Notes: generated from the sequence alone by a model not told the origin. A stretch of 50,121 nucleotides of DNA from Deltaproteobacteria bacterium (GCA_016219065.1 JACRCK010000073.1:1-50121), one strand, 5' to 3'; shown: positions 16,552 to 35,623, counted from the first letter of the stretch. Numbers and translations: made by a program.

Positions 16552-16607
16552 GGCCAACGGCAAGTTCACCGGGAGCGAAACAAATCCGGTGAAACGACCG
16601 GTTGGGC
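16552..16607 (-). other. attC site (integron cassette recombination site)
   Basis: Minus strand: R'' GCCCAAC - cggtcgt - L'' TTCACCGG - loop - L' CCGGTGAA - cttgcc - R' GTTGGCC. 56 bp, just after a stop codon and before the next RBS. Confidence 0.85.
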
Positions 16608-16623
16608 AATACAGTAAGCCGGC

Positions 16624-17163
16624 CTAGTGCTGTTTCCCCAGTATGTCTTTATTCTTGGATATCCCTCTCTTTCCTGTCATCTGCTCAATTTCGATTTTCA
16701 TGAGGGTCGTCTTTTTCATTGATCTTTCTACATATCTGATTCCATCCGTTTCATACTGGCGGCATTGACTTATATCTAGAAACTTCTTCAAGAAAGCAAT
16801 TAATACTTCCGATTTCTCCTTGCCGACTACTTCCATAGCTTTTCCAAATATTACTACACTATTGAAATTTGTATCGAAGCCGTCAAATCCGATATCATTG
16901 TCGGAAATTATTGGAACAACCCTTACATCCGTCACAATGTTAAATGACACGTTTTTGCAGTTCGCTATATTATCGAGTTTATGGCCTACTAATGCACAAT
17001 GAAAATAGATACTACCATTATAAAAAATATAGTTCACAGCAACTGCATATGGGTAGCCATCAGATCCCATTGTGGCCAAAGTTCCATACTCGGCCTTTGT
17101 TAAAATCTTGTTGCATTCTTCAATAGTTAACTGCTTTTCCTTTCTTCGGATTTCCCTGAACAT
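16624..17163 (-). CDS. Pyridoxamine 5'-phosphate oxidase-like / NimA-family flavin-binding protein
   Basis: MFREIRRKEKQL, YGTLA..DGYPYAV, IYFHCALVGHKLDNI, SVVIFGKA, MTGK. Markedly AT-rich. Confidence 0.88.
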   Translation of the reverse strand: MFREIRRKEKQLTIEECNKILTKAEYGTLATMGSDGYPYAVAVNYIFYNGSIYFHCALVGHKLDNIANCKNVSFNIVTDVRVVPIISDNDIGFDGFDTNFNSVVIFGKAMEVVGKEKSEVLIAFLKKFLDISQCRQYETDGIRYVERSMKKTTLMKIEIEQMTGKRGISKNKDILGKQH

Positions 17164-18405: not shown

Positions 18406-18456
18406 GCTTCACCCTCAGCACGCCGTCTGCGCGCAAATGCACTCGTTATCCTTCAT

Positions 18457-18611
18457 GCCTAACTGCAAATTCACAAGCGCCGGCAGTTTGGCGCCCCATA
18501 AGTTAACGGCATTGGGTCCGACCCAATGCCGGAGATATAAATAATAAAGAATTGACCCAGTCTGGTGCGGGGAAAGCCGCCAGGCTTTACCCGCCAATGG
18601 CGTTGTTATGC
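18457..18611 (-). other. attC split by inserted palindromic DNA
   Basis: Minus strand: R'' GCATAAC aacgcc att | ~105-bp insert containing ggcattgggtcggacccaatgcc | ggcgcc..ggcgc ttgtgaat ttgca R' GTTAGGC. Confidence 0.7.
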
Positions 18612-18618
18612 AGTAGTT

Positions 18619-18924
18619 TCATTTCGGGTGGCTGGATACTCGCTTCTTTGCCGGAATGATCTCGATTAGCGACCTGAGGGCCTTGTTGACGGCATCGGAA
18701 GTGGGGAAATACTTCCTTACGTCCGGCTCCAACATGACCGCGCCGTCTTCAAGTTTGAAGTACTGAACGGAGTCGGTACCATCTTCTTTGTGAATGATGA
18801 CCTTATGGCCCGCCCTATATGCCTCGTAGTACTTGCCACGCACACCGCCCTTCATATCGGTGAAGTCGTATTCCTCTCTCATGTCATTTACCTTTGGCGG
18901 CGCTATAGTCTTAGCCTTCTTCAT
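18619..18924 (-). CDS. BrnA-like antitoxin (orphan)
   Basis: DMREEYDF..GGVRGKY...VMLEPDV.K.FPTSDAVNKALR. AAGGAG RBS; the start overlaps the BrnT-like tail PATASERRHYEEG*. Confidence 0.75.
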   Translation of the reverse strand: MKKAKTIAPPKVNDMREEYDFTDMKGGVRGKYYEAYRAGHKVIIHKEDGTDSVQYFKLEDGAVMLEPDVRKYFPTSDAVNKALRSLIEIIPAKKRVSSHPK

Positions 18925-18944
18925 AGTGTCTCCTTTCAGACGCC

Positions 18945-19240
18945 GTTGCCGGAGTTGACCAAATAATCCAATATGGTCAACCCGAATCGCTTCCTGGCTT
19001 CGAAGAGACAGACTAGCCAGCTCTGACGGTCTTTGGCAAATTTCAGTAAAAATTCCCTCTTGTGGCACCGGTGGGTGATGTGCCGGATCTGACCGGGGGT
19101 GAAATATCGATTGGCTCTGGGCATGGGTTGCCGGGTTAGAAACCTCTTTTTGGGGGGAGAAAGTGCACTTTAAGACTTTAATTGCCATCCGGATTCATCA
19201 TAATTCACGAAAATTCAATTAATTTGTTTGGTCCGACCCC
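18945..19240 (-). mobile_element. 5' fragment of an HUH/Y1 (RAYT-like) transposase element with its left end
   Basis: MPRANRYFTPGQIRHITHRCHKREFLLKFAKDRQ...ILDYLVNS, broken just before the HUH motif. The upstream leader ends in tggtccgacccc (19229-19240) and matches 21085-21201. Confidence 0.85.
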
Positions 19241-19307
19241 GATTCAAAAAACAGGCTCTTTCTGTTAAGTTAACGGCGGTGGGTCCGATCCCGATTCGAA
19301 AACGCAA

Positions 19308-19937
19308 TTACTTCCCAACAAAGTAATTTGCCAGATCCAAATCCACCTGAGAAAACTCGAATTTAGATCGTATTTCTGGCGGAGATTTACCTTGCGCAAT
19401 CCAGATTGCAACCTGTGCGGCCTTGGTTACGTCCTTATTTGGATATTTATCATGGTACGATGAGATTCTTCCGAGTACAGCCGTCATGTCTTGTGGAGGC
19501 AGACTTATCACAAAGGACTCTCCGGGGCTTGGGTTATCTTTATCAAAGTCAGCGCAGTAAGACAAAAAATTAACCGCAATTTTTTTCTTTGGAGGTAGTT
19601 TGATAAATGATTTTTTCCCAGAGCGGTAAAACTTGCCAGATCTCCCTAATACACCTAGCACATACATATTTTGTCCGCGCCCTTGATTTAGCAATTGAAT
19701 AGCGTCCTTTAAAAAAACATCTAAATTAATCTCCTTATTTGTGTTATTTACTAAATACCCGTCAACAACTGTTCCAGACGAGCCTCCTGTGCCCTCTATG
19801 CTATCTACAGATATATTACCCGATTGAATTTCGTTTACTAGATTTTTCGTCAATACATCTGCATCAGCGCAAGTGACGAAAAGTATTGTAAACATTGTCA
19901 ATATTGTGGCCAAATATCTATAATTAGATGATAGCAT
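19308..19937 (-). CDS. Secreted hypothetical protein (AT-rich cassette)
   Basis: 209 aa, signal peptide, SYCADFDKDNP and AAQVAIW motifs. Preceded by a GTTGAAA R'-like remnant. Confidence 0.75.
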   Translation of the reverse strand: MLSSNYRYLATILTMFTILFVTCADADVLTKNLVNEIQSGNISVDSIEGTGGSSGTVVDGYLVNNTNKEINLDVFLKDAIQLLNQGRGQNMYVLGVLGRSGKFYRSGKKSFIKLPPKKKIAVNFLSYCADFDKDNPSPGESFVISLPPQDMTAVLGRISSYHDKYPNKDVTKAAQVAIWIAQGKSPPEIRSKFEFSQVDLDLANYFVGK

Positions 19938-19994
19938 TTTTTGACCCCCATAATGAATAAAGTTTTTTCAACGTTTCAGCCCAAAGCGGCATTG

Positions 19995-20200
19995 ACCAGC
20001 GGCCTACGGGCCGGGCTGGAGTGGTGGTTCCGGTTTTACAACCAGGAACGCCCCCACCAAACGTTTGATATCCTAACTCCGGATGAGGTATATATGGGCT
20101 TAACTGCTCCAGTGATTCAGGCCGCCTGAGGCCTCTACTAAAAACGAGACTCAGAGCTTAGACCCATGCTCAGGCTGTCCAAGTACTGGGGTCCACCACC
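19995..20200 (+). mobile_element. IS3-family remnant (transposase C-terminus and right end)
   Basis: GLEWWFRFYNQERPHQTF..LTPDEVY...AA*, followed by ctgtccaagtactggggtccacca. Confidence 0.8.
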
Positions 20201-20202
20201 CC

Positions 20203-20275
20203 TTAACACTTAAAATGCCTGTCTGATTCAACATAATTCATGAAAATTCAACCGGTTTGTCTGGTCCGACCCCGA
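20203..20275 (-). mobile_element. Isolated left end of the RAYT-like element, truncated by the IS3 remnant
   Basis: aaatgcctgtctgattcaacataattcatgaaaattcaaccggtttgtctggtccgacccc matches 19180-19240 and 21140-21201. Confidence 0.8.
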
Positions 20276-20290
20276 TTCCTTGCCTTGCCC

Positions 20291-20587
20291 TTATTTAAAA
20301 AGACTGATGATGCCAATAATAAAACCCGCGACGGTAGCAGTTCCGAGAACAATATTAAGCCAGAAAATTTTAGTACCAAGAGAGTTGCTTGCCGTTGTAG
20401 CGTCATCAATCGACTTTGTGGTTTTATCGATTGATTCTATCAGGGAGGTTACATTGAGTTCCAAGAGTCTCATGACAATTCTATCCCGATGCAGAACCCC
20501 GGCCTCTTCATAGCCAAGAGCATTAAGGAGTTTTGTTTTGTCCGTCTCGGTAGAATATTTTGGTAGATTGTTATTTTCTTGGTCCAT
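20291..20587 (-). CDS. Hypothetical protein with C-terminal TM helix (cassette)
   Basis: 98 aa; GGGAG RBS directly after the R' GTTATAA. Confidence 0.7.
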   Translation of the reverse strand: MDQENNNLPKYSTETDKTKLLNALGYEEAGVLHRDRIVMRLLELNVTSLIESIDKTTKSIDDATTASNSLGTKIFWLNIVLGTATVAGFIIGIISLFK

Positions 20588-20599
20588 AAATTATCTCCC

Positions 20600-20635
20600 T
20601 TATAACGTAAAGCTCAGCCGCGCCGTCATGGCGCA
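20600..20635 (-). other. attC right half abutting the RAYT-like right end
   Basis: Minus strand: gcgccatgacggcgc hairpin, L' gctgagc, tttac, R' GTTATAA. Confidence 0.65.
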
Positions 20636-20644
20636 GGCAAATTA

Positions 20645-21201
20645 GGGTCGGACCAGACCAACACTTTAAATAGCACGATAAATGTTCCATTCCAGCCAAT
20701 ATTTTGGCTTAAACAGCTCTTTTCGAGGTCAAAAAGGGCGTTGTAAGGCTGTTGAAGGTCCCGAAGCTGTTGCTGTTCACCATCTTCGATGATCGAACGA
20801 CCGATGGCCCTGACCCCTAAAGCCTCCCAAATTTCTTTTACGAAGGCCTCTCCTCCCACCGCCAGGCTTTCCGTCCACCAGTCATCCCGGAAGGGATTCG
20901 TCTTTGCCAATCCTTCATCAATCCAGTCCAATATGGACAATCCAAATCGCTTTCTGGCTTCGAAAAGCCAGCCCAGCCAGCGCTGACGGTCTTTGGGAAA
21001 TTTCAGCAAAAATTCTCGCTTGTGGTAGCGGTGGGTGATGTGCCAGATCTGGCCGGGGGTGAAATAGCGATTGGCTCTGGGCATGGGTTTGTCTGCTTAG
21101 AAGTCTCTTTTTGAGGGTAAAAAAAGCGCTTTAAGACTTCAAATGCCTTCCGGATTCAACATAATTCACGAAAATTCAATTGGTTTGTTTGGTCCGACCC
21201 C
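20645..21201 (-). mobile_element. Internally deleted (non-autonomous) HUH/Y1 RAYT-like element with inverted ends
   Basis: ORF 20626-21084 joins the N-terminus (MPRANRYF...GLSILD) in frame to the C-terminus (WID...WTESLAVGGEAFV) with no HUH or catalytic Tyr region. Ends are GGGTCGGACCA (20645-20655) and TGGTCCGACCC (21190-21200). Confidence 0.85.
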
Positions 21202-21242
21202 GTTTTCTGCTTGTAGCGCCGCATTGGCGACGCCGCAGGCGG

Positions 21243-21352
21243 CGCCAACGCCCGCCATCACCGGCCCGAACCACACCGCCAAAGAGCTTGCAAAAAGGAC
21301 CGACCAAGTGTGCCCGGCGTGGTTCGGGTCCTGGTGCATGGCCACGTTAGGA
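21243..21352 (-). other. attC site
   Basis: Minus strand: R'' TCCTAAC gtggcca tgcacc..cccgaaccacgcc...ggtgtggttcggg ccggtga tggcgggc R' GTTGGCG; 110-bp imperfect hairpin. Confidence 0.85.
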
Positions 21353-21389: not shown

Positions 21390-21599
21390 TCAGGCGGCTC
21401 GTTCTTTAAGCTCGCTTGGATGAATCGAAAGGTACTCCCTCACTTCAAGATTCATCCGGTCGATCTCCGCGAGATAGCCTCCAGCCGATAATCGATAATT
21501 CTGCGGATTGGTTTCCACCTGTCGAAGTCTTTCCACTTGCTGCTGGAAATACCTGATACGTTCTTTGGTTGCCTCAAGTTCCTGATCGTTTTGGATCAT
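21390..21599 (-). CDS. Small helical hypothetical protein (partner of the upstream DUF6932-like gene)
   Basis: 69 aa MIQNDQELEATKERI...; GAGGTG RBS, overlaps the upstream stop region. Confidence 0.75.
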   Translation of the reverse strand: MIQNDQELEATKERIRYFQQQVERLRQVETNPQNYRLSAGGYLAEIDRMNLEVREYLSIHPSELKERAA

Positions 21600-21815
21600 C
21601 GCTAATCACCTCTACTATGCCACGGCGTACGTTGCCGCGTTTGATCTGCCAGTGCTGAAGTGCTTCAGACTCTCCGCCAATTGCAGCGAGCCTCCTGATC
21701 CAGAAGACACTGACCCCCAGAACATCTTGCGCTGCTTGATGGTCAAAAATGATGACTGCCTCACCACGCACAGGGCTGGAGTCAAACGAATCCTCCATCA
21801 GCATGAAGATAGTGT
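21574..21815 (-). pseudogene. C-terminal fragment of a DUF6932-like (putative nucleotidyltransferase-fold) gene
   Basis: IFMLMEDSFD...SVFWIRRLAA..WQIKR...RGIVEV recalled from that family. The 5' part is replaced by a GTAG-type REP (21827-21855). Confidence 0.55.
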
Positions 21816-22275
21816 CGGTCCAGCAAGGGCGGGTGGGAGTGAATCCCAACCCTACGTCAACAAGTTCGAAATTCGATATTCAGCGTTCGATATTCGACGT
21901 TCGTTTTTATTTTCGGATTAAACCGCTATGCCCGGGGCGAGCACCCGCAAAGCATGAAAATCGCGGGCGTGGGGTGCGGGCGACCGGCCGGTCGCCCCTA
22001 CACCAGAGGTCCTGGCCTTTATCCCGAGAAAAGGCGGCTCCCATGCCGCCGGACTGACTTTATAACCCCCGCCCTAGCCAACATGGTTGAACCAAAGGCG
22101 GGAGGAGATTAACGGCTCGACTGGGCCTTTCGACCGGCTGAAGGCCCTGAGCACGCCGAAGGGCTCGCCGAAGTCCCCTCCCCAACAACGAACTGCGACA
22201 TTTTGGCTTTGTATTGGTATTAAACTATTACGCCGAACGCCCAACGCCGAACGGTATTTCGTATTAAGTCCCCCG

Positions 22276-22401
22276 CTACAACTGCTCGAACCAACCCGAT
22301 CATCTCCCTTACCGCCTGGTCCATTCCCATGTAGATCGCCCTGGCCATGATGCTGTGGCCGATGCTGTATTCCTCAATTACCATCCCTGCGAAGCGCTTG
22401 A
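22276..22401 (-). pseudogene. Diverged duplicate of the pdxJ 3' end
   Basis: Encodes KRFAGMVIEEYSIGHSIMARAIYMGMDQAVREMIGL versus pdxJ KRFAGVAEIEEYSIGHSIMARAIYVGLDQAVREMIGL; one codon deleted and a +1 frameshift near the stop. Confidence 0.9.
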
Positions 22402-22434
22402 TAATGAATCCAAGCTTATCGTGAAGCCAGGCTT

Positions 22435-22683
22435 TCAGTCGGCCCTGGGGGAACGTCTTGCCGGGCGGGTTGATTTTCGGGCCAGGTCAATCAGCGAACT
22501 GAGCGCATTGTTTACCGCTTCTTCATTTGGAAATACTTTGGCGACTTCCGGTCTGAGGACGATGATATTCGAGGACTCCTTCAAACGTTTTGAATATTTT
22601 CCCCGCACTAATCCTCCCGGAAAATCTGACCGCCGGTATTCCGGCCGCAGTTCATCCTGGAGATCCTTTTTATCCTTCTTCAT
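22435..22683 (-). CDS. BrnA-like antitoxin (orphan)
   Basis: DELRPEY...GLVRGKY...IIVLRPEVAKVFPNEEAVNNAL; start ATG 22683. Confidence 0.75.
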   Translation of the reverse strand: MKKDKKDLQDELRPEYRRSDFPGGLVRGKYSKRLKESSNIIVLRPEVAKVFPNEEAVNNALSSLIDLARKSTRPARRSPRAD

Positions 22684-22706
22684 TGTTTTTCCCTGCCCTC
22701 TCCAGA

Positions 22707-22795
22707 GGCGGGCGGGGATTAACGGCTCGACTGAACCTTTCGACCGGCTCAAGGCCCTGAGCACGCCGAAGGGCTCGCCGTAGTCCCCGCCCCTA
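22707..22795. repeat. Nested REP-like element (3 copies)
   Basis: ggctcgactg..cctttcgaccggctcaaggccctgagcacgccgaagggctcgccg inside a gggcggggat...tccccgccctac REP. Copies at 22097-22185 and (inner part) 11980-12046. Confidence 0.8.
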
Positions 22796-22982
22796 CATCA
22801 GAGCCTTTAAGCTTCTACGCCGAACGGTATTTTCGTATTGATTCGATTTTCGATGTTGGACGTTCGATGTTGGATGTTCGTCTATTTTAGAACTAAACCC
22901 CCCATGCTCAGGTGGCATCCGCGAAGCATGGAAATCCCCCCCAACCCCCCTTTTGAAAAGGGGGGAGCCCAAGCTCCATCGG

Positions 22983-23708
22983 TTACAACTGCTCGATCAA
23001 CCCAATCATCTCCCGCACCGCCTGATCCAATCCCACGTAGATGGCCCTCGCCATGATGCTGTGGCCGATGCTGTATTCCTCGATCTCTGCTACCCCGGCA
23101 AAGCGCTTGGTATTGACGTAGTTCAACCCGTGGCCGGCGCTGACCTTGAGTCCCAGGCCGGCGGCCTGTTCGGCCCCTTCCCGGATCCGCTCGAAGAGCT
23201 TGACGGCTTCCTTTTCGCTCCGGGCGTTGGCGTAGTGGCCGGTGTGGAGCTCCACGATGTCGGCGCCCACATCCCGGGAGGCCTGGATCTGAGCGGGATC
23301 GGCGTCGATGAAGAGGCTCACGGCGATGCGGGCCCGATGAAAGCGGCTGATGACCTGGGCGAGGTTCTTTTGCTGTTTGACGATTTCCAGCCCCCCCTCG
23401 GTGGTCAGTTCCTGCCGCTTTTCCGGCACCAGCGTGACGAAATCCGGTTTGACCTTCAGGGCGATGCGGATGATCTCCTCGGCCGCGCCCATCTCCAGGT
23501 TCAGCTTGGTCTGGACCGTTTCCTTTAGTAGCCGGAGGTCCCGGTCTTGGATGTGCCGGCGGTCTTCGCGTAAATGCACGATGATGCCTTCGGCCCCGGC
23601 CAGTTCGGCCATGCCGGCGGCCAGCACCGGGTCGGGTTCGCAACCCCGGCGGGCCTGCCGCAGGGTGGCCACGTGATCCACGTTGACGGCCAAACGCGCT
23701 TTGGTCAT
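22983..23708 (-). CDS. pdxJ: Pyridoxine 5'-phosphate synthase (also the C-terminal domain of a YbeY-PdxJ in-frame ORF 22983-24158)
   Basis: LAVNVDHVATLRQAR, HLREDRRHIQDRD, VPEKRQELTTEGG, ELHTG, AGHGL, SIGHSI. Own AAGGAGG RBS before ATG 23708. Confidence 0.95.
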   Translation of the reverse strand: MTKARLAVNVDHVATLRQARRGCEPDPVLAAGMAELAGAEGIIVHLREDRRHIQDRDLRLLKETVQTKLNLEMGAAEEIIRIALKVKPDFVTLVPEKRQELTTEGGLEIVKQQKNLAQVISRFHRARIAVSLFIDADPAQIQASRDVGADIVELHTGHYANARSEKEAVKLFERIREGAEQAAGLGLKVSAGHGLNYVNTKRFAGVAEIEEYSIGHSIMARAIYVGLDQAVREMIGLIEQL

Positions 23709-24158
23709 ATAAGAATCCCTCCTTTGTTCTTTGCCCATTCGTTCCACGATCTCCCCGGTGCGCAGCTCCATGAGCCGTTCTTCTTCCGGGGACCGTTCAT
23801 GATCATAGCCCTGGAGGTGCAGCCAGCCGTGGGCGATCAGGGCGGCCACCCGATCAACCAGGGGCAGCCCCGCCTCCCGGGCCTCCCGGGCCGCTGTTTC
23901 CGTGGAAACCACGATGTCGCCCCAGAGGTGCGGATTCACTTCCCCGTAAGGGCCCTCCTGCATGGAAAAGGCCAGGACGTTGGTCGGCCCGGTGCGGTTC
24001 AAAAAGCGGCGGTTGTAGCGGCTGATTTCCCGGTCTTCCACCAGCAGCAGACTGACTTCACCGGCCTGCGGCTCCAAGGCCCGGCAGAAGGAGGTCGTCA
24101 TCCTTTCCACCTGGGCGGGACTGATCCGTTTCTGCCGGTTGTCGATCCGTATCTCCAT
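23709..24158 (-). CDS. ybeY: rRNA maturation RNase YbeY domain (no stop codon; reads into pdxJ)
   Basis: PTNVLAF, GDIVVS, HGWLHLQGYDH (H-x3-H-x5-H metal motif). Confidence 0.9.
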
Positions 24159-34180: not shown

Positions 34181-35494
34181 ATGGAACAGCAAGCCTTGGA
34201 TCCGCGCTTACCCCTCATGCAGCAGGCCGATCTTCAGGACAAAATCGTCCTGCTCCGCGTCGATCACAATGTCGTCAAAAAAGGGGCGGTTCGCGACCCC
34301 TACCGGATCGAGCAGACCTTCGGGACCCTTTATAATATCGTCGAGCGCGGCGGCCGCCCCATCCTGATGACCCATCAGGGCCGCCCCAAAGACAAGAAGA
34401 GCGGTGCGATCACCTGTTCCCCGGAAAGCGCCGTGGATCCGGTCGTCCGTTACCTGGAACAAAAACTCCACACCCGTTTTTATATCCCCTCTTTCGCCAG
34501 CGCCGGGGACCGGGGGATCCCCCATATCGACACCTCGGTCAATCTGGCCATCAAGGATCTGCGGCGCCGGTGCATCGGCGGGATTTATCTGCCCAACTCC
34601 CGCTGGTTTCAGGGGGAAGAGGGTCAGGGCGCGGAACGGGAAACCTTTGCCCGGGAACTGGCCGGCCTGGCGGACGTATTTATCAATGACGCCTTCGGCT
34701 CCTGGCAGCCCCACGCCTCCACCTTCGATATCACCCGCTACCTCCCCTCCTATGCCGGTTTTCTCATGCAGAAGGAACTGGGCAACCTGGAACGGGTGCT
34801 TAACCCGGAGCGGCCTTTCTTGGCCGTGGTGGCCGGCGCCAAATACGATACCAAAATCGGCCCCTTGACCAAAATCTACGAGCAAGTGGATCACCTCATC
34901 CTGGGCGGGGTCATCTACAACGCATATCTGGCCGCCAAGCTGGGCCTGACCATTGCCGGGGTGAGCGAAAAAGACGTGGCCGCGGCCAAGTCCCTGGTGG
35001 CCCTGGATGCCCGGGAGAAAAAGATCGTGGAACTGCCGCTGGTGGTGGAATCCGACACCATGGAGGGCCGTTTGGAGGGCCGCTTCCGGACCCTCGACCT
35101 GCGCACCCTGCCGGCCGGGCGGCCACTGGGTTTCCTGCTGGACGTCGCCGCCGATTCCTTCGAAGATCCCCGGGTGCAGGAAGTCCTTTCCCAGGCCCGG
35201 ACGATTTTCGTCAATGCCGTCATGGGGTTCACACCCCATTTCACCGAAGGCTCCAAGGCCCTGGACCAGGCCATCGATAAGAACCAGGCGGCCCACAAGA
35301 TGTACGGCGGCGGGGACACCCTGCAGGAATTCAAGGACCTCAATCCGGGTCTCTATCTGAACGTGATCGACAACGCCCAGTATTATTTCTTTACCGGGGG
35401 CGGTACGGTCTTAACCGCCATCGAAGCCGGCACCCCCTACGGTCTCAAGCCCATCCAGGCCCTGATCGAAAACGGGGGCCGGGAACCAAAATAA
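34181..35494 (+). CDS. pgk: Phosphoglycerate kinase (divergent)
   Basis: LRVDHNV, MTHQGRP, INDAFG, AGFLMQKEL, AGAKYDTKI, GGGDT, TGGG. AAGGAG RBS before ATG 34181. Confidence 0.88.
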   Translation: MEQQALDPRLPLMQQADLQDKIVLLRVDHNVVKKGAVRDPYRIEQTFGTLYNIVERGGRPILMTHQGRPKDKKSGAITCSPESAVDPVVRYLEQKLHTRFYIPSFASAGDRGIPHIDTSVNLAIKDLRRRCIGGIYLPNSRWFQGEEGQGAERETFARELAGLADVFINDAFGSWQPHASTFDITRYLPSYAGFLMQKELGNLERVLNPERPFLAVVAGAKYDTKIGPLTKIYEQVDHLILGGVIYNAYLAAKLGLTIAGVSEKDVAAAKSLVALDAREKKIVELPLVVESDTMEGRLEGRFRTLDLRTLPAGRPLGFLLDVAADSFEDPRVQEVLSQARTIFVNAVMGFTPHFTEGSKALDQAIDKNQAAHKMYGGGDTLQEFKDLNPGLYLNVIDNAQYYFFTGGGTVLTAIEAGTPYGLKPIQALIENGGREPK

Positions 35495-35623
35495 AGGTGA
35501 GGAGTATTGGAGTAAAGGAGTGCTGGAGTAATGGGTTTCGATACAATACTCCAATACTCCACTACTCCATTACTCCACCTTGCACGTTCGCTGAGGTTTT
35601 ACCTCTAGAAAAGGAGATCGCTC

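Follow-up and report, generated by a model that had tools for sequence, protein, structure and literature searches.

Dead copies of a TIR-flanked Y1 transposon in a cassette-like island, and the over-representation of its family in integron cassette arrays

What kind of element leaves the same short motif six times within 2.7 kb, and does it single out the attC sites of integron gene cassettes? The question is raised by positions 18,457 to 21,201 of a 50,121-nt stretch of DNA from Deltaproteobacteria bacterium (GCA_016219065.1, JACRCK010000073.1:1-50121), the whole of which is hereafter called the window. A first-pass annotation had proposed an under-described family of HUH elements that target single-stranded DNA (ssDNA) hairpins, invade and remodel cassette arrays, and possibly move cassettes without the integron integrase IntI. 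[quoted passage not shown] The element is a TIRtron, or TIRYT, a type that has already been named and is little studied. The reading that we favour, at a probability of roughly 0.7, is that of a TIRtron graveyard in a decayed cassette-like island, left by a single-strand mover that is over-represented in cassette arrays and is not attC-specific.

The motif, GGRTCGGACC, is the tip of terminal inverted repeats (TIRs). An exact search of the window gave six occurrences, all within 18515-21200, as had been reported, and the motif also lies directly after cassette stop codons as described, 17 nt past the stop of open reading frame (ORF) 19308..19937(-) for the copy at 19282 and 19 nt past that of ORF 20291..20587(-) for the copy at 20263. 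Allowing one mismatch brings the count in the window to 15, where 13.6 are expected by chance, so that the exact cluster alone is non-random. Genome-wide there are 30 occurrences of the exact 10-mer, compared with 32 for the reversed control. Scatter across the genome had been weighed beforehand as a counter-indication; at this chance level the motif is no genome-wide repeat, and the local cluster reflects copies of an element rather than a genomic repeat family.

Copy 1 is the most complete (coordinates of all features are collected in Table 1), and the claim that the motif bounds an internally deleted Y1 gene was borne out by it. Repeat analysis gave 27-nt inverted arms (20645-20671 and 21174-21200, 78% complementary) around a 556-bp unit, which on the minus strand runs from the left TIR through a ~115-nt leader and a 152-aa ORF to the right TIR. 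The ORF retains the first ~55 and the last ~90 residues of 267-aa Y1 transposases; the former are 64-78% identical to the start of the ~267-aa proteins, and the latter match the homologue C-terminus (P0001). Between them an in-frame deletion has removed ~126 residues, including the HUH (NH[IV]H) and tyrosine (Y[IV]D[LM]NM) motifs of the homologues. Many database homologues (P0061-P0158) are independent in-frame internal deletions like copy 1, keeping the N-terminal ~30-90 and C-terminal ~100 residues and dropping both motifs, in a homologue search that favours ORFs retaining both termini, so that the frequency of such deletions is not established.

The two further left ends described earlier were recovered as copies 2 and 3, at 84% and 86% identity to copy 1. 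Copy 2 shares with copy 1 a 120-nt segment (19125-19244, 84% identical to 21086-21205) and a 163-nt segment with two occurrences (18967-19129, 89% identical to 20927-21089). It breaks off ~40 nt upstream of the start of the next gene (18923), and its ORF is 18936..19124. A third occurrence of the 120-nt segment, at 20158-20277, corresponds to copy 3, whose well-matching part is 20203-20280 and which starts 10-19 nt past the stop codon of ORF 20291..20587. The remnant ORFs had no match in Pfam. All three local copies are cut short on the 3' side, and the copies in the rest of the genome are all fragments or bear stop codons. Since every local copy is without the catalytic core, there is no current movement here.

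The intact protein is a RAYT-like (REP-associated tyrosine transposase-like, REP being a repetitive extragenic palindrome) Y1/HUH transposase of 267 aa with a 125-aa tail. The Y1_Tnp domain PF01797 is present in 57 of the 59 long homologues (~267 aa), with full-length members scoring 40-47 bits (cut-off 23), and among solved structures those of the IS608 transposase and TnpA-REP (4er8, E=0.08) come nearest, at E ~0.06-0.08. The family is large: a threshold of E<=1e-3 collects 1709 representative proteins, species genomes contain over 551 genomic relatives, and the hosts include Desulfobacterota, Nitrospirota, anammox Planctomycetota, Gamma-, Beta- and Zetaproteobacteria, Binatia and others. 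Element matches occur in 14 of 21 genomes of the window's order, only one of the matches being near full length, with a premature stop, and large genomes carry multiple copies plus many decayed ones (6 to 19 matches each).

The ends of the element were examined in the best 80 homologue loci (L041-L120, 552 kb in total). A de novo inverted-repeat search around the transposase ORF recovered the same ends, and the core motif located both ends in 56 of the 80 loci, from many phyla, in line with the expectation that inverted ends would be conserved in homologues. The TIR profile from 54 loci reads (G)GGGTCGGACCAAGnTAAC...TTGA, with ~27 nt conserved and conservation beginning two to three G's ahead of GTCGG. 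Full-length elements measure 926-950 bp between TIRs. A sister genus has a near-complete copy with the same ends (L017); its transposase has a premature stop, and the element lies directly after the stop codon of a CoA-binding-domain gene. No target duplication was found in the 54 elements, as flanking 2- to 10-mers matched at chance level at every boundary offset tried. The 54-element profile likewise showed neither a conserved GTTRRRY or other flank motif beyond the TIR nor a fixed tetra- or pentanucleotide target beside the left end.

As TIRs are a hallmark of DDE transposases, and as the nearest NCBIfam model is that of REP-associated tyrosine transposases, the repeats could be taken to belong to a MITE-like element of an unrelated DDE transposase, or to be the REPs of a domesticated RAYT, with the Y1 gene as a passenger or host gene. 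We regard this as extremely improbable. The Y1 gene is the sole ORF between the TIRs in every locus, across phyla, and the 54 elements lack a target duplication; the 6 to 19 matches per large genome are unlike single-copy domesticated RAYTs, and the tip 10-mer is not amplified over its control (30 vs 32).

Y1 genes flanked by TIRs were named TIRtrons or TIRYTs (TIR-associated tyrosine transposases) by Di Nocera, De Gregorio and Rocco (2013; PMC3733652), so the family is not the new or under-described one that had been supposed. In the available text of that paper the majority TIR motif is GGGGWSAS, other TIRs being unrelated. The present element resembles the TIRtrons described there in having a RAYT-like Y1/HUH gene as sole ORF, flanked by TIRs instead of REP hairpins, in the G-rich start of its TIR (GGGGTCGG, compared with the published GGGGWSAS), and in the lone and doubled TIR copies nearby. 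Quentin et al. (2018; PMC6006769), again in the text available, largely equate TIRtrons with TnpA-Y1 subclass 2.1, which is the closest class for our element rather than one of which it is a clean member: its NH[IV]H motif fits the published HUH variants NHVH or NH[YF]H, whereas the published C-terminal helix-turn-helix (HTH) domain (Bac_DnaA_C, HTH_23/28) has no counterpart here, Pfam finding no DnaA_C or HTH domain in the 125-aa tail.

Two better known groups are more distant. With IS200/IS605 insertion sequences (IS) such as IS608 and ISDra2 the element shares the PF01797 Y1/HUH fold family and the lack of a target duplication. However, its transposase is 267 aa rather than ~150 aa long and full-length members score only 23-26 bits on the IS200 model NF033573 (cut-off 55); it is bounded by ~27-nt inverted repeats, not two different subterminal hairpins, and it has no tnpB and no conserved short target by the left end. 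The REP/RAYT systems (REPtrons), in which the gene also lies between inverted repeats, are nearest by NCBIfam (REP_Tyr_transpos, NF047646, 64-77 bits) and by structure (PDB 4er8). The NCBIfam scores nevertheless fall short of the equivalog threshold (80), a high-copy REP population is lacking (30 vs 32 for the 10-mer), and the element is multi-copy and decays like an IS, whereas a RAYT is a single domesticated gene.

Whether such an element has anything to do with attC sites depends on how these are recognised. We used a covariance model (R2) made from 19 attC sites. These came from six complete genomes of the phylum, with seven IntI-adjacent arrays between them; complete genomes were used because the IntI-adjacent arrays of the same family lie at contig ends, with 0.6-2.3 kb left. 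The consensus structure, derived from per-sequence folds, has 62 positions and 19 pairs, with two bulged bases typical of attC, and replaced an earlier RNAalifold consensus (R1) of only 5 pairs. Beyond the sites used in training, R2 recovered another 15 attCs in IntI-adjacent arrays, every one of them on the cassette strand.

Across the 80 homologue loci, searched on both strands within 4 kb, R2 gave 23 matches at E<=1 in 15 loci, including nine at E<=0.01 in 8 loci. The matched sequences are canonical attCs, and all 23 lie on the strand of the transposase gene, so the association of homologues with attC that the first-pass annotation had predicted is present. In the genomes of the window's order, 37 attCs were found at E<=0.003 in 21 genomes (97 Mb), and three of them lie within 1.6 kb of two of the 20 element loci (G020:C54 and G020:C174), where by our arithmetic ~0.025 of the 20 loci would be expected near a strong attC. 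There are five R2 matches among 22 element-fragment loci of the order, co-oriented where checked (L026, L034, L036), and contig C74 of the window's own genome has an attC ~590 nt upstream of its element copy. In five large genomes with 31 attCs at E<=0.01 in 34 Mb, 4 of ~30 element sites are within 8 kb of an attC, on the same strand. The family is therefore strongly over-represented in cassette arrays and always cassette-oriented, with no fixed place in attC. This array association, the co-orientation and the flank duplications described below were not found in the literature searched, supplementary material aside. A tblastn search of the 80 loci and the window with the IntI of L121 gave a sole match, a partial IntI-like gene at 1115-1792 of L081, 45% identical over residues 169-396 and ~2.1 kb upstream of the element copy.

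In the window itself R2 gives two good matches. Each lies between genes, immediately behind an ORF and in the orientation of the genes and the element copies, and neither is interrupted. The weaker, attC-like site at 21243-21352 (E=0.15) follows directly after a small gene pair (21390..21849) and lies 42 nt upstream of the left end of copy 1, in agreement with the ~40 bp that had been given for the distance from an attC to a left end; at -57 kcal/mol it is the strongest single hairpin in the island. A strict hairpin scan returned only coding-region noise and the centre of this site, and relaxed scans returned the same two intergenic sites as the covariance model. A third, partial R2 match inside the ybeY-pdxJ ORF, obtained with filters off, was taken as false. 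A search of the window against Rfam returned no RNA family.

The two broken attC sites of the first-pass annotation fared less well. For the split attC placed at 18457-18611, alignment by eye finds an R''/L'' start and an R' end like those of the C74 attC, with ~100 nt of extra DNA, including a palindrome, between them. For the right half placed at 20600-20635, the putative 3' part ends in GTTATAA, followed by a Shine-Dalgarno sequence and the ATG of a 98-aa ORF, 6 nt from the right end of copy 1. Neither stretch was matched by R2 or by half-site hidden Markov models (HMMs), which are of low power, the true site at 16552-16607 scoring only 2.6 bits with them.

No integrase was found by Pfam among the 23 long ORFs of the window that were scanned (796-28305), and in the genome (399 contigs, 94% complete) the best score on the IntI model TIGR02249 was 83.8 bits, compared with a cut-off of 265. 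In the lineage IntI is nonetheless common: in the phylum 136 of 401 genomes exceed the cut-off, and in the family 6 of 13 do. IntegronFinder calls an integron from an IntI gene, or a cluster of attC sites lacking an integrase (CALIN) from at least two attC sites at most 4 kb apart. With no IntI and two R2 matches 4.6 kb apart the window falls outside this rule, R2 not being the IntegronFinder model. The island is accessory and made up of small co-oriented genes, and looks like a decayed, integrase-less cassette array. The truncated copies, the IS3 fragment, the lone MITE ends and the presence of at most two intact attCs, where ~6 boundaries would be expected, fit decay in such a setting.

The arrangement around copy 1 invites the idea that the element recognises folded attC hairpins and inserts site-specifically, splitting or remodelling attC as do IS1111-attC elements and group IIC-attC introns. 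Its left end lies 42 nt past an attC-like site in the window, 41 nt past one in a relative with the same layout (L036), and 7 nt past one in L095; by eye, an attC-like 3' part is seen 6 nt from the right end of copy 1, and attC-like ends around 18455-18612; and all attC matches are co-oriented with the element. We nevertheless consider attC-specific insertion improbable. The remaining attC-to-element distances are 134, 177, 209, 258 and 346 nt and then 700-1400 nt, so that overall they span 7 to ~1400 nt with no fixed insertion position, most array copies lying 134-1400 nt from the nearest attC, inside cassettes. In 65 of the 80 loci there is no attC within 4 kb, and none is present after the CoA-binding-domain gene stop in L017. 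When the element was excised in silico, 5 of 46 junctions folded into attC-like hairpins, no more often than the 12 of 138 control windows that did so. The flanks have no GTTRRRY, and the putative split sites lack support from the model. IS1111-attC elements and group IIC-attC introns likewise occupy cassette arrays and keep to one orientation relative to attC, but they use a DEDD transposase or a reverse transcriptase and ribozyme, and they insert at a defined position in attC, which the present TIRtron does not, with 65 of 80 loci outside arrays. Thus the proposal of a family that invades arrays stands as regards its association with attC (15 of 80 loci, 23 of 23 matches co-oriented) and fails as regards an insertion point in attC. 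The element is not an attC-specific parasite, and the locus does not show cassette movement; nothing here indicates transfer without IntI, and the local copies are all catalytically dead.

Entry by hitch-hiking would be another route to the arrays, the element arriving as cargo of a cassette moved by IntI and the arrays serving as its port of entry. IntI is common enough in the phylum and the family (136 of 401 and 6 of 13 genomes), and in both the window and L036 there is little besides the element between two cassette boundaries. The DNA between attC and element is, however, unrelated between loci and of varying length, 65 of the 80 loci are outside arrays, and cargo would not require a fixed orientation. 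We judge this route very unlikely.

A stronger contender, though still a doubtful one, is pure retention, in which the element inserts anywhere and survives longer in arrays and accessory islands, where insertions cost nothing. The local copies are old and dead (84-89% identical) and sit beside an IS3 fragment, array copies are if anything less often intact than those elsewhere (7 of 15 vs 43 of 65, by crude criteria), and transposases of several IS families (IS5, IS3 and IS110) occur in cassette arrays according to the available text of PMC11089894. Against this, arrays are a tiny share of neutral DNA (37 strong attCs in 97 Mb), yet 2 of 20 loci are within 1.6 kb of one, and at least seven array copies are intact. 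Co-orientation in 23 of 23 cases is also not predicted by retention unless insertion is already orientation-specific.

Orientation is indeed biased beyond the arrays, and the attC co-orientation is part of this wider bias. The GC skew of the transposase strand was positive at 57, negative at 17 and zero at 1 of 75 loci (33 vs 7 where |skew|>0.03), and neighbouring long ORFs were mostly co-oriented with the element in 60 of the 75 (32 vs 3 where the bias was strong). For IS200/IS605 elements, as exemplified by IS608, the available text of PMC5027513 describes excision from, and insertion into, the template of the lagging strand, as well as attraction to stalled forks. The orientation bias, together with the missing target duplication, supports a single-strand route for our element too, and live members most likely move in this way, following the 'peel and paste' path of Y1 transposases. 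Pairing between both TIRs of a single strand would bring the two cut sites together; once excised, the strand would be pasted into ssDNA at replication forks in a single orientation, with no duplication of the target. The excess in arrays may then reflect attraction to, or survival in, insertion-tolerant regions rich in folded ssDNA or stalled forks, and would arise without recognition of attC itself.

Several points weigh against the picture of a TIRtron graveyard left in a cassette-like island by a single-strand mover. The putative single-strand mechanism is deduced from the protein family, the missing target duplication and the orientation bias, and GC skew over a 4-8 kb flank is a noisy proxy for replication direction. 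To name the island a cassette array goes beyond the data, as the window has only two attC matches, 4.6 kb apart, one of them weak (E=0.15), and no IntI. Neither a further IS family nor random sites from the same 80 genomes served as a matched control for the enrichment near attC, and the genome-wide attC counts scored only 150 first-look candidates per genome, which makes the background density a lower bound. Cassette arrays also often break assemblies. Array copies are no more often intact than others, so that preference and mere retention are indistinguishable. Assignment to the TIRtrons is imperfect as well: in comparison with the available published descriptions, the TIR agrees with GGGGWSAS at 7 of 8 positions, with G for the consensus A, and the tyrosine motif ends in NM rather than the NP of class 2 and subclass 2.1 (Y---NP).

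A bolder extension, which we offer tentatively, is that this TIRtron lineage is a third invader of arrays beside IS1111-attC elements and group IIC-attC introns: drawn by folded or stalled ssDNA to which attC sites give rise, inserting in cassette orientation only, its end processing producing one-sided flank duplications and neighbouring deletions and thereby erasing attCs and cassettes without an integrase. The related MITEs, in whose termini the 10-nt tip is followed by a stretch resembling the L'-R' part of an attC, would be relics of these events. TIR-flanked Y1 transposons are widespread yet little treated in the literature. If the array preference is real, they have been overlooked as agents that break attC sites and reduce live arrays to relics without an integrase, such as this island, and the transposase would lend itself naturally to probing arrays for DNA that is single-stranded or stalled. 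If it is not, the locus is an ordinary transposon graveyard.

One feature of the family appears to be a new signature. Just outside both element ends a short stretch of flank is often present twice in tandem, as a one-sided duplication. Repeats of at least 12 nt occur at 29 of 108 ends, in comparison with 6 of 1361 control 70-mers drawn at random from the same loci, and those of at least 14 nt at 18 ends compared with 3 controls. The duplicated stretch usually takes in the first 0-7 nt of the TIR, rarely 11-14 nt. Further cases are L017 (16 nt), L036 (14 nt) and contig C74 of the window's own genome (15 nt), and 19244-19300 in the window is a flank duplication with a spacer. As the two ends of one element bear unrelated repeats, this is not a target duplication. 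As a candidate cause, the polymerase may stall and slip at the foot of the paired TIRs; alternatively, the transposase may nick the DNA, with limited extension and resealing to follow. Flank duplications and the 3'-side deletions of the local copies could both be by-products of end processing and decay.

Two of the six motifs are not ends of the Y1 element. The cluster noted in the first-pass annotation is real, but those at 18515 and 19282 each mark a terminus of a related MITE. The first lies at the centre of a perfect 25-nt palindrome (18507-18531). The second is 52 nt before the left end of copy 2, and here flank plus tip (TTTTYGAATCGGGRTCGGACC) recurs at a 52-nt period across 19244-19300. 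The 26-nt unit that they share (tip plus CAATGCCGTTAACTTA) bounds ~190-bp MITE copies with inverted termini on four other contigs of the window's genome. MITE terminus and Y1-element TIR have the 10-nt tip and a TAACTTA stretch in common, and to judge from this likeness the MITE has probably been mobilised by an enzyme related to the Y1 transposase. The MITE copy on C230 is flanked by a 9-nt direct repeat. The inner part of the MITE, CAATGCCGTTAACTTA, resembles the L'-R' end of the local attC type.

Table 1. Coordinates, strand and basis of the features discussed, in the window unless another contig is named.
Feature	Position	Strand	Basis or remark
Copy 1, internally deleted TIRtron, both TIRs, 556 bp instead of ~940	20645..21200	-	inverted arms
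Y1 transposase remnant ORF, 152 aa	20626..21084	-	alignment to 267-aa homologues
Copy 2, left end + ~115-nt leader + first ~55 codons	18967..19244	-	87% identical to copy 1 over 279 nt
Copy 3, left-end stump only, 78 nt	20203..20280	-	86% identical to copy 1 over 78 nt
GGRTCGGACC	18515-18524	-	exact match
GGRTCGGACC	19230-19239	-	exact match
GGRTCGGACC	19282-19291	-	exact match
GGRTCGGACC	20263-20272	-	exact match
GGRTCGGACC	20645-20654	+	exact match
GGRTCGGACC	21191-21200	-	exact match
attC site, 56 nt	16552-16607	-	R2 26.9 bits, E=4e-4; after PNPOx-like gene 16624..17163
attC-like site, 110 nt	21243-21352	-	R2 16.4 bits, E=0.15, full model length
Possible disrupted attC	18455..18612	-	alignment by eye; no R2 match; unproven
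Possible attC 3' part (L'-R', ending GTTATAA)	20590..20640	-	by eye; no R2 match; unproven
Lone MITE terminus (tip + CAATGCCGTTAACTTA)	18499..18531	-	direct repeat family D3
Second lone MITE terminus	19266..19291	-	17 nt past stop of ORF 19308..19937
MITE copies, ~190 bp	C89 (~3454), C215 (~1893), C230 (~6174), C364 (~11812)		shared terminus
IS3-family transposase fragment (rve_3 tail), beside copy 3	19941..20129	+	Pfam PF13683, 28.6 bits

Three other ideas about the ends were considered and set aside. Insertion into the centre of a palindromic target, suggested by the tip GGTCGGACC being itself a palindrome, was dropped because all 54 elements have T at position +1, whereas the partner position +5 can be A or G, and because the 10-mer is not enriched in the genome (30 vs 32). 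Capture by IntI through the CTAAC...GTTAG inside the TIRs was not adopted; array copies keep both complete TIR tips. The distance from the upstream stop codon to the left end, within 60 nt in 17 of 49 cases, depends on crude ORF calls and was not used as evidence.

Some features of the surroundings may also be recorded. At 22983-24158(-) a single 391-aa ORF fuses a YbeY endoribonuclease domain to a PdxJ domain. Its last ~130 nt (22984-23116) are repeated at 22277-22407 with 85-90% identity, and a 96-nt segment (22702-22797) is repeated at 22092-22187 with 91% identity; a ~707-bp unit with a small gene, 22435..22764(-), is thus duplicated at the pdxJ end. The duplicated pdxJ end looks like the boundary of an accessory island with a repeated attachment region. 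Further along the window, the hairpin scan found a near-perfect intergenic palindrome of 136 nt at 35467-35602, with TACTCCA-like units and a folding energy of -54 kcal/mol.

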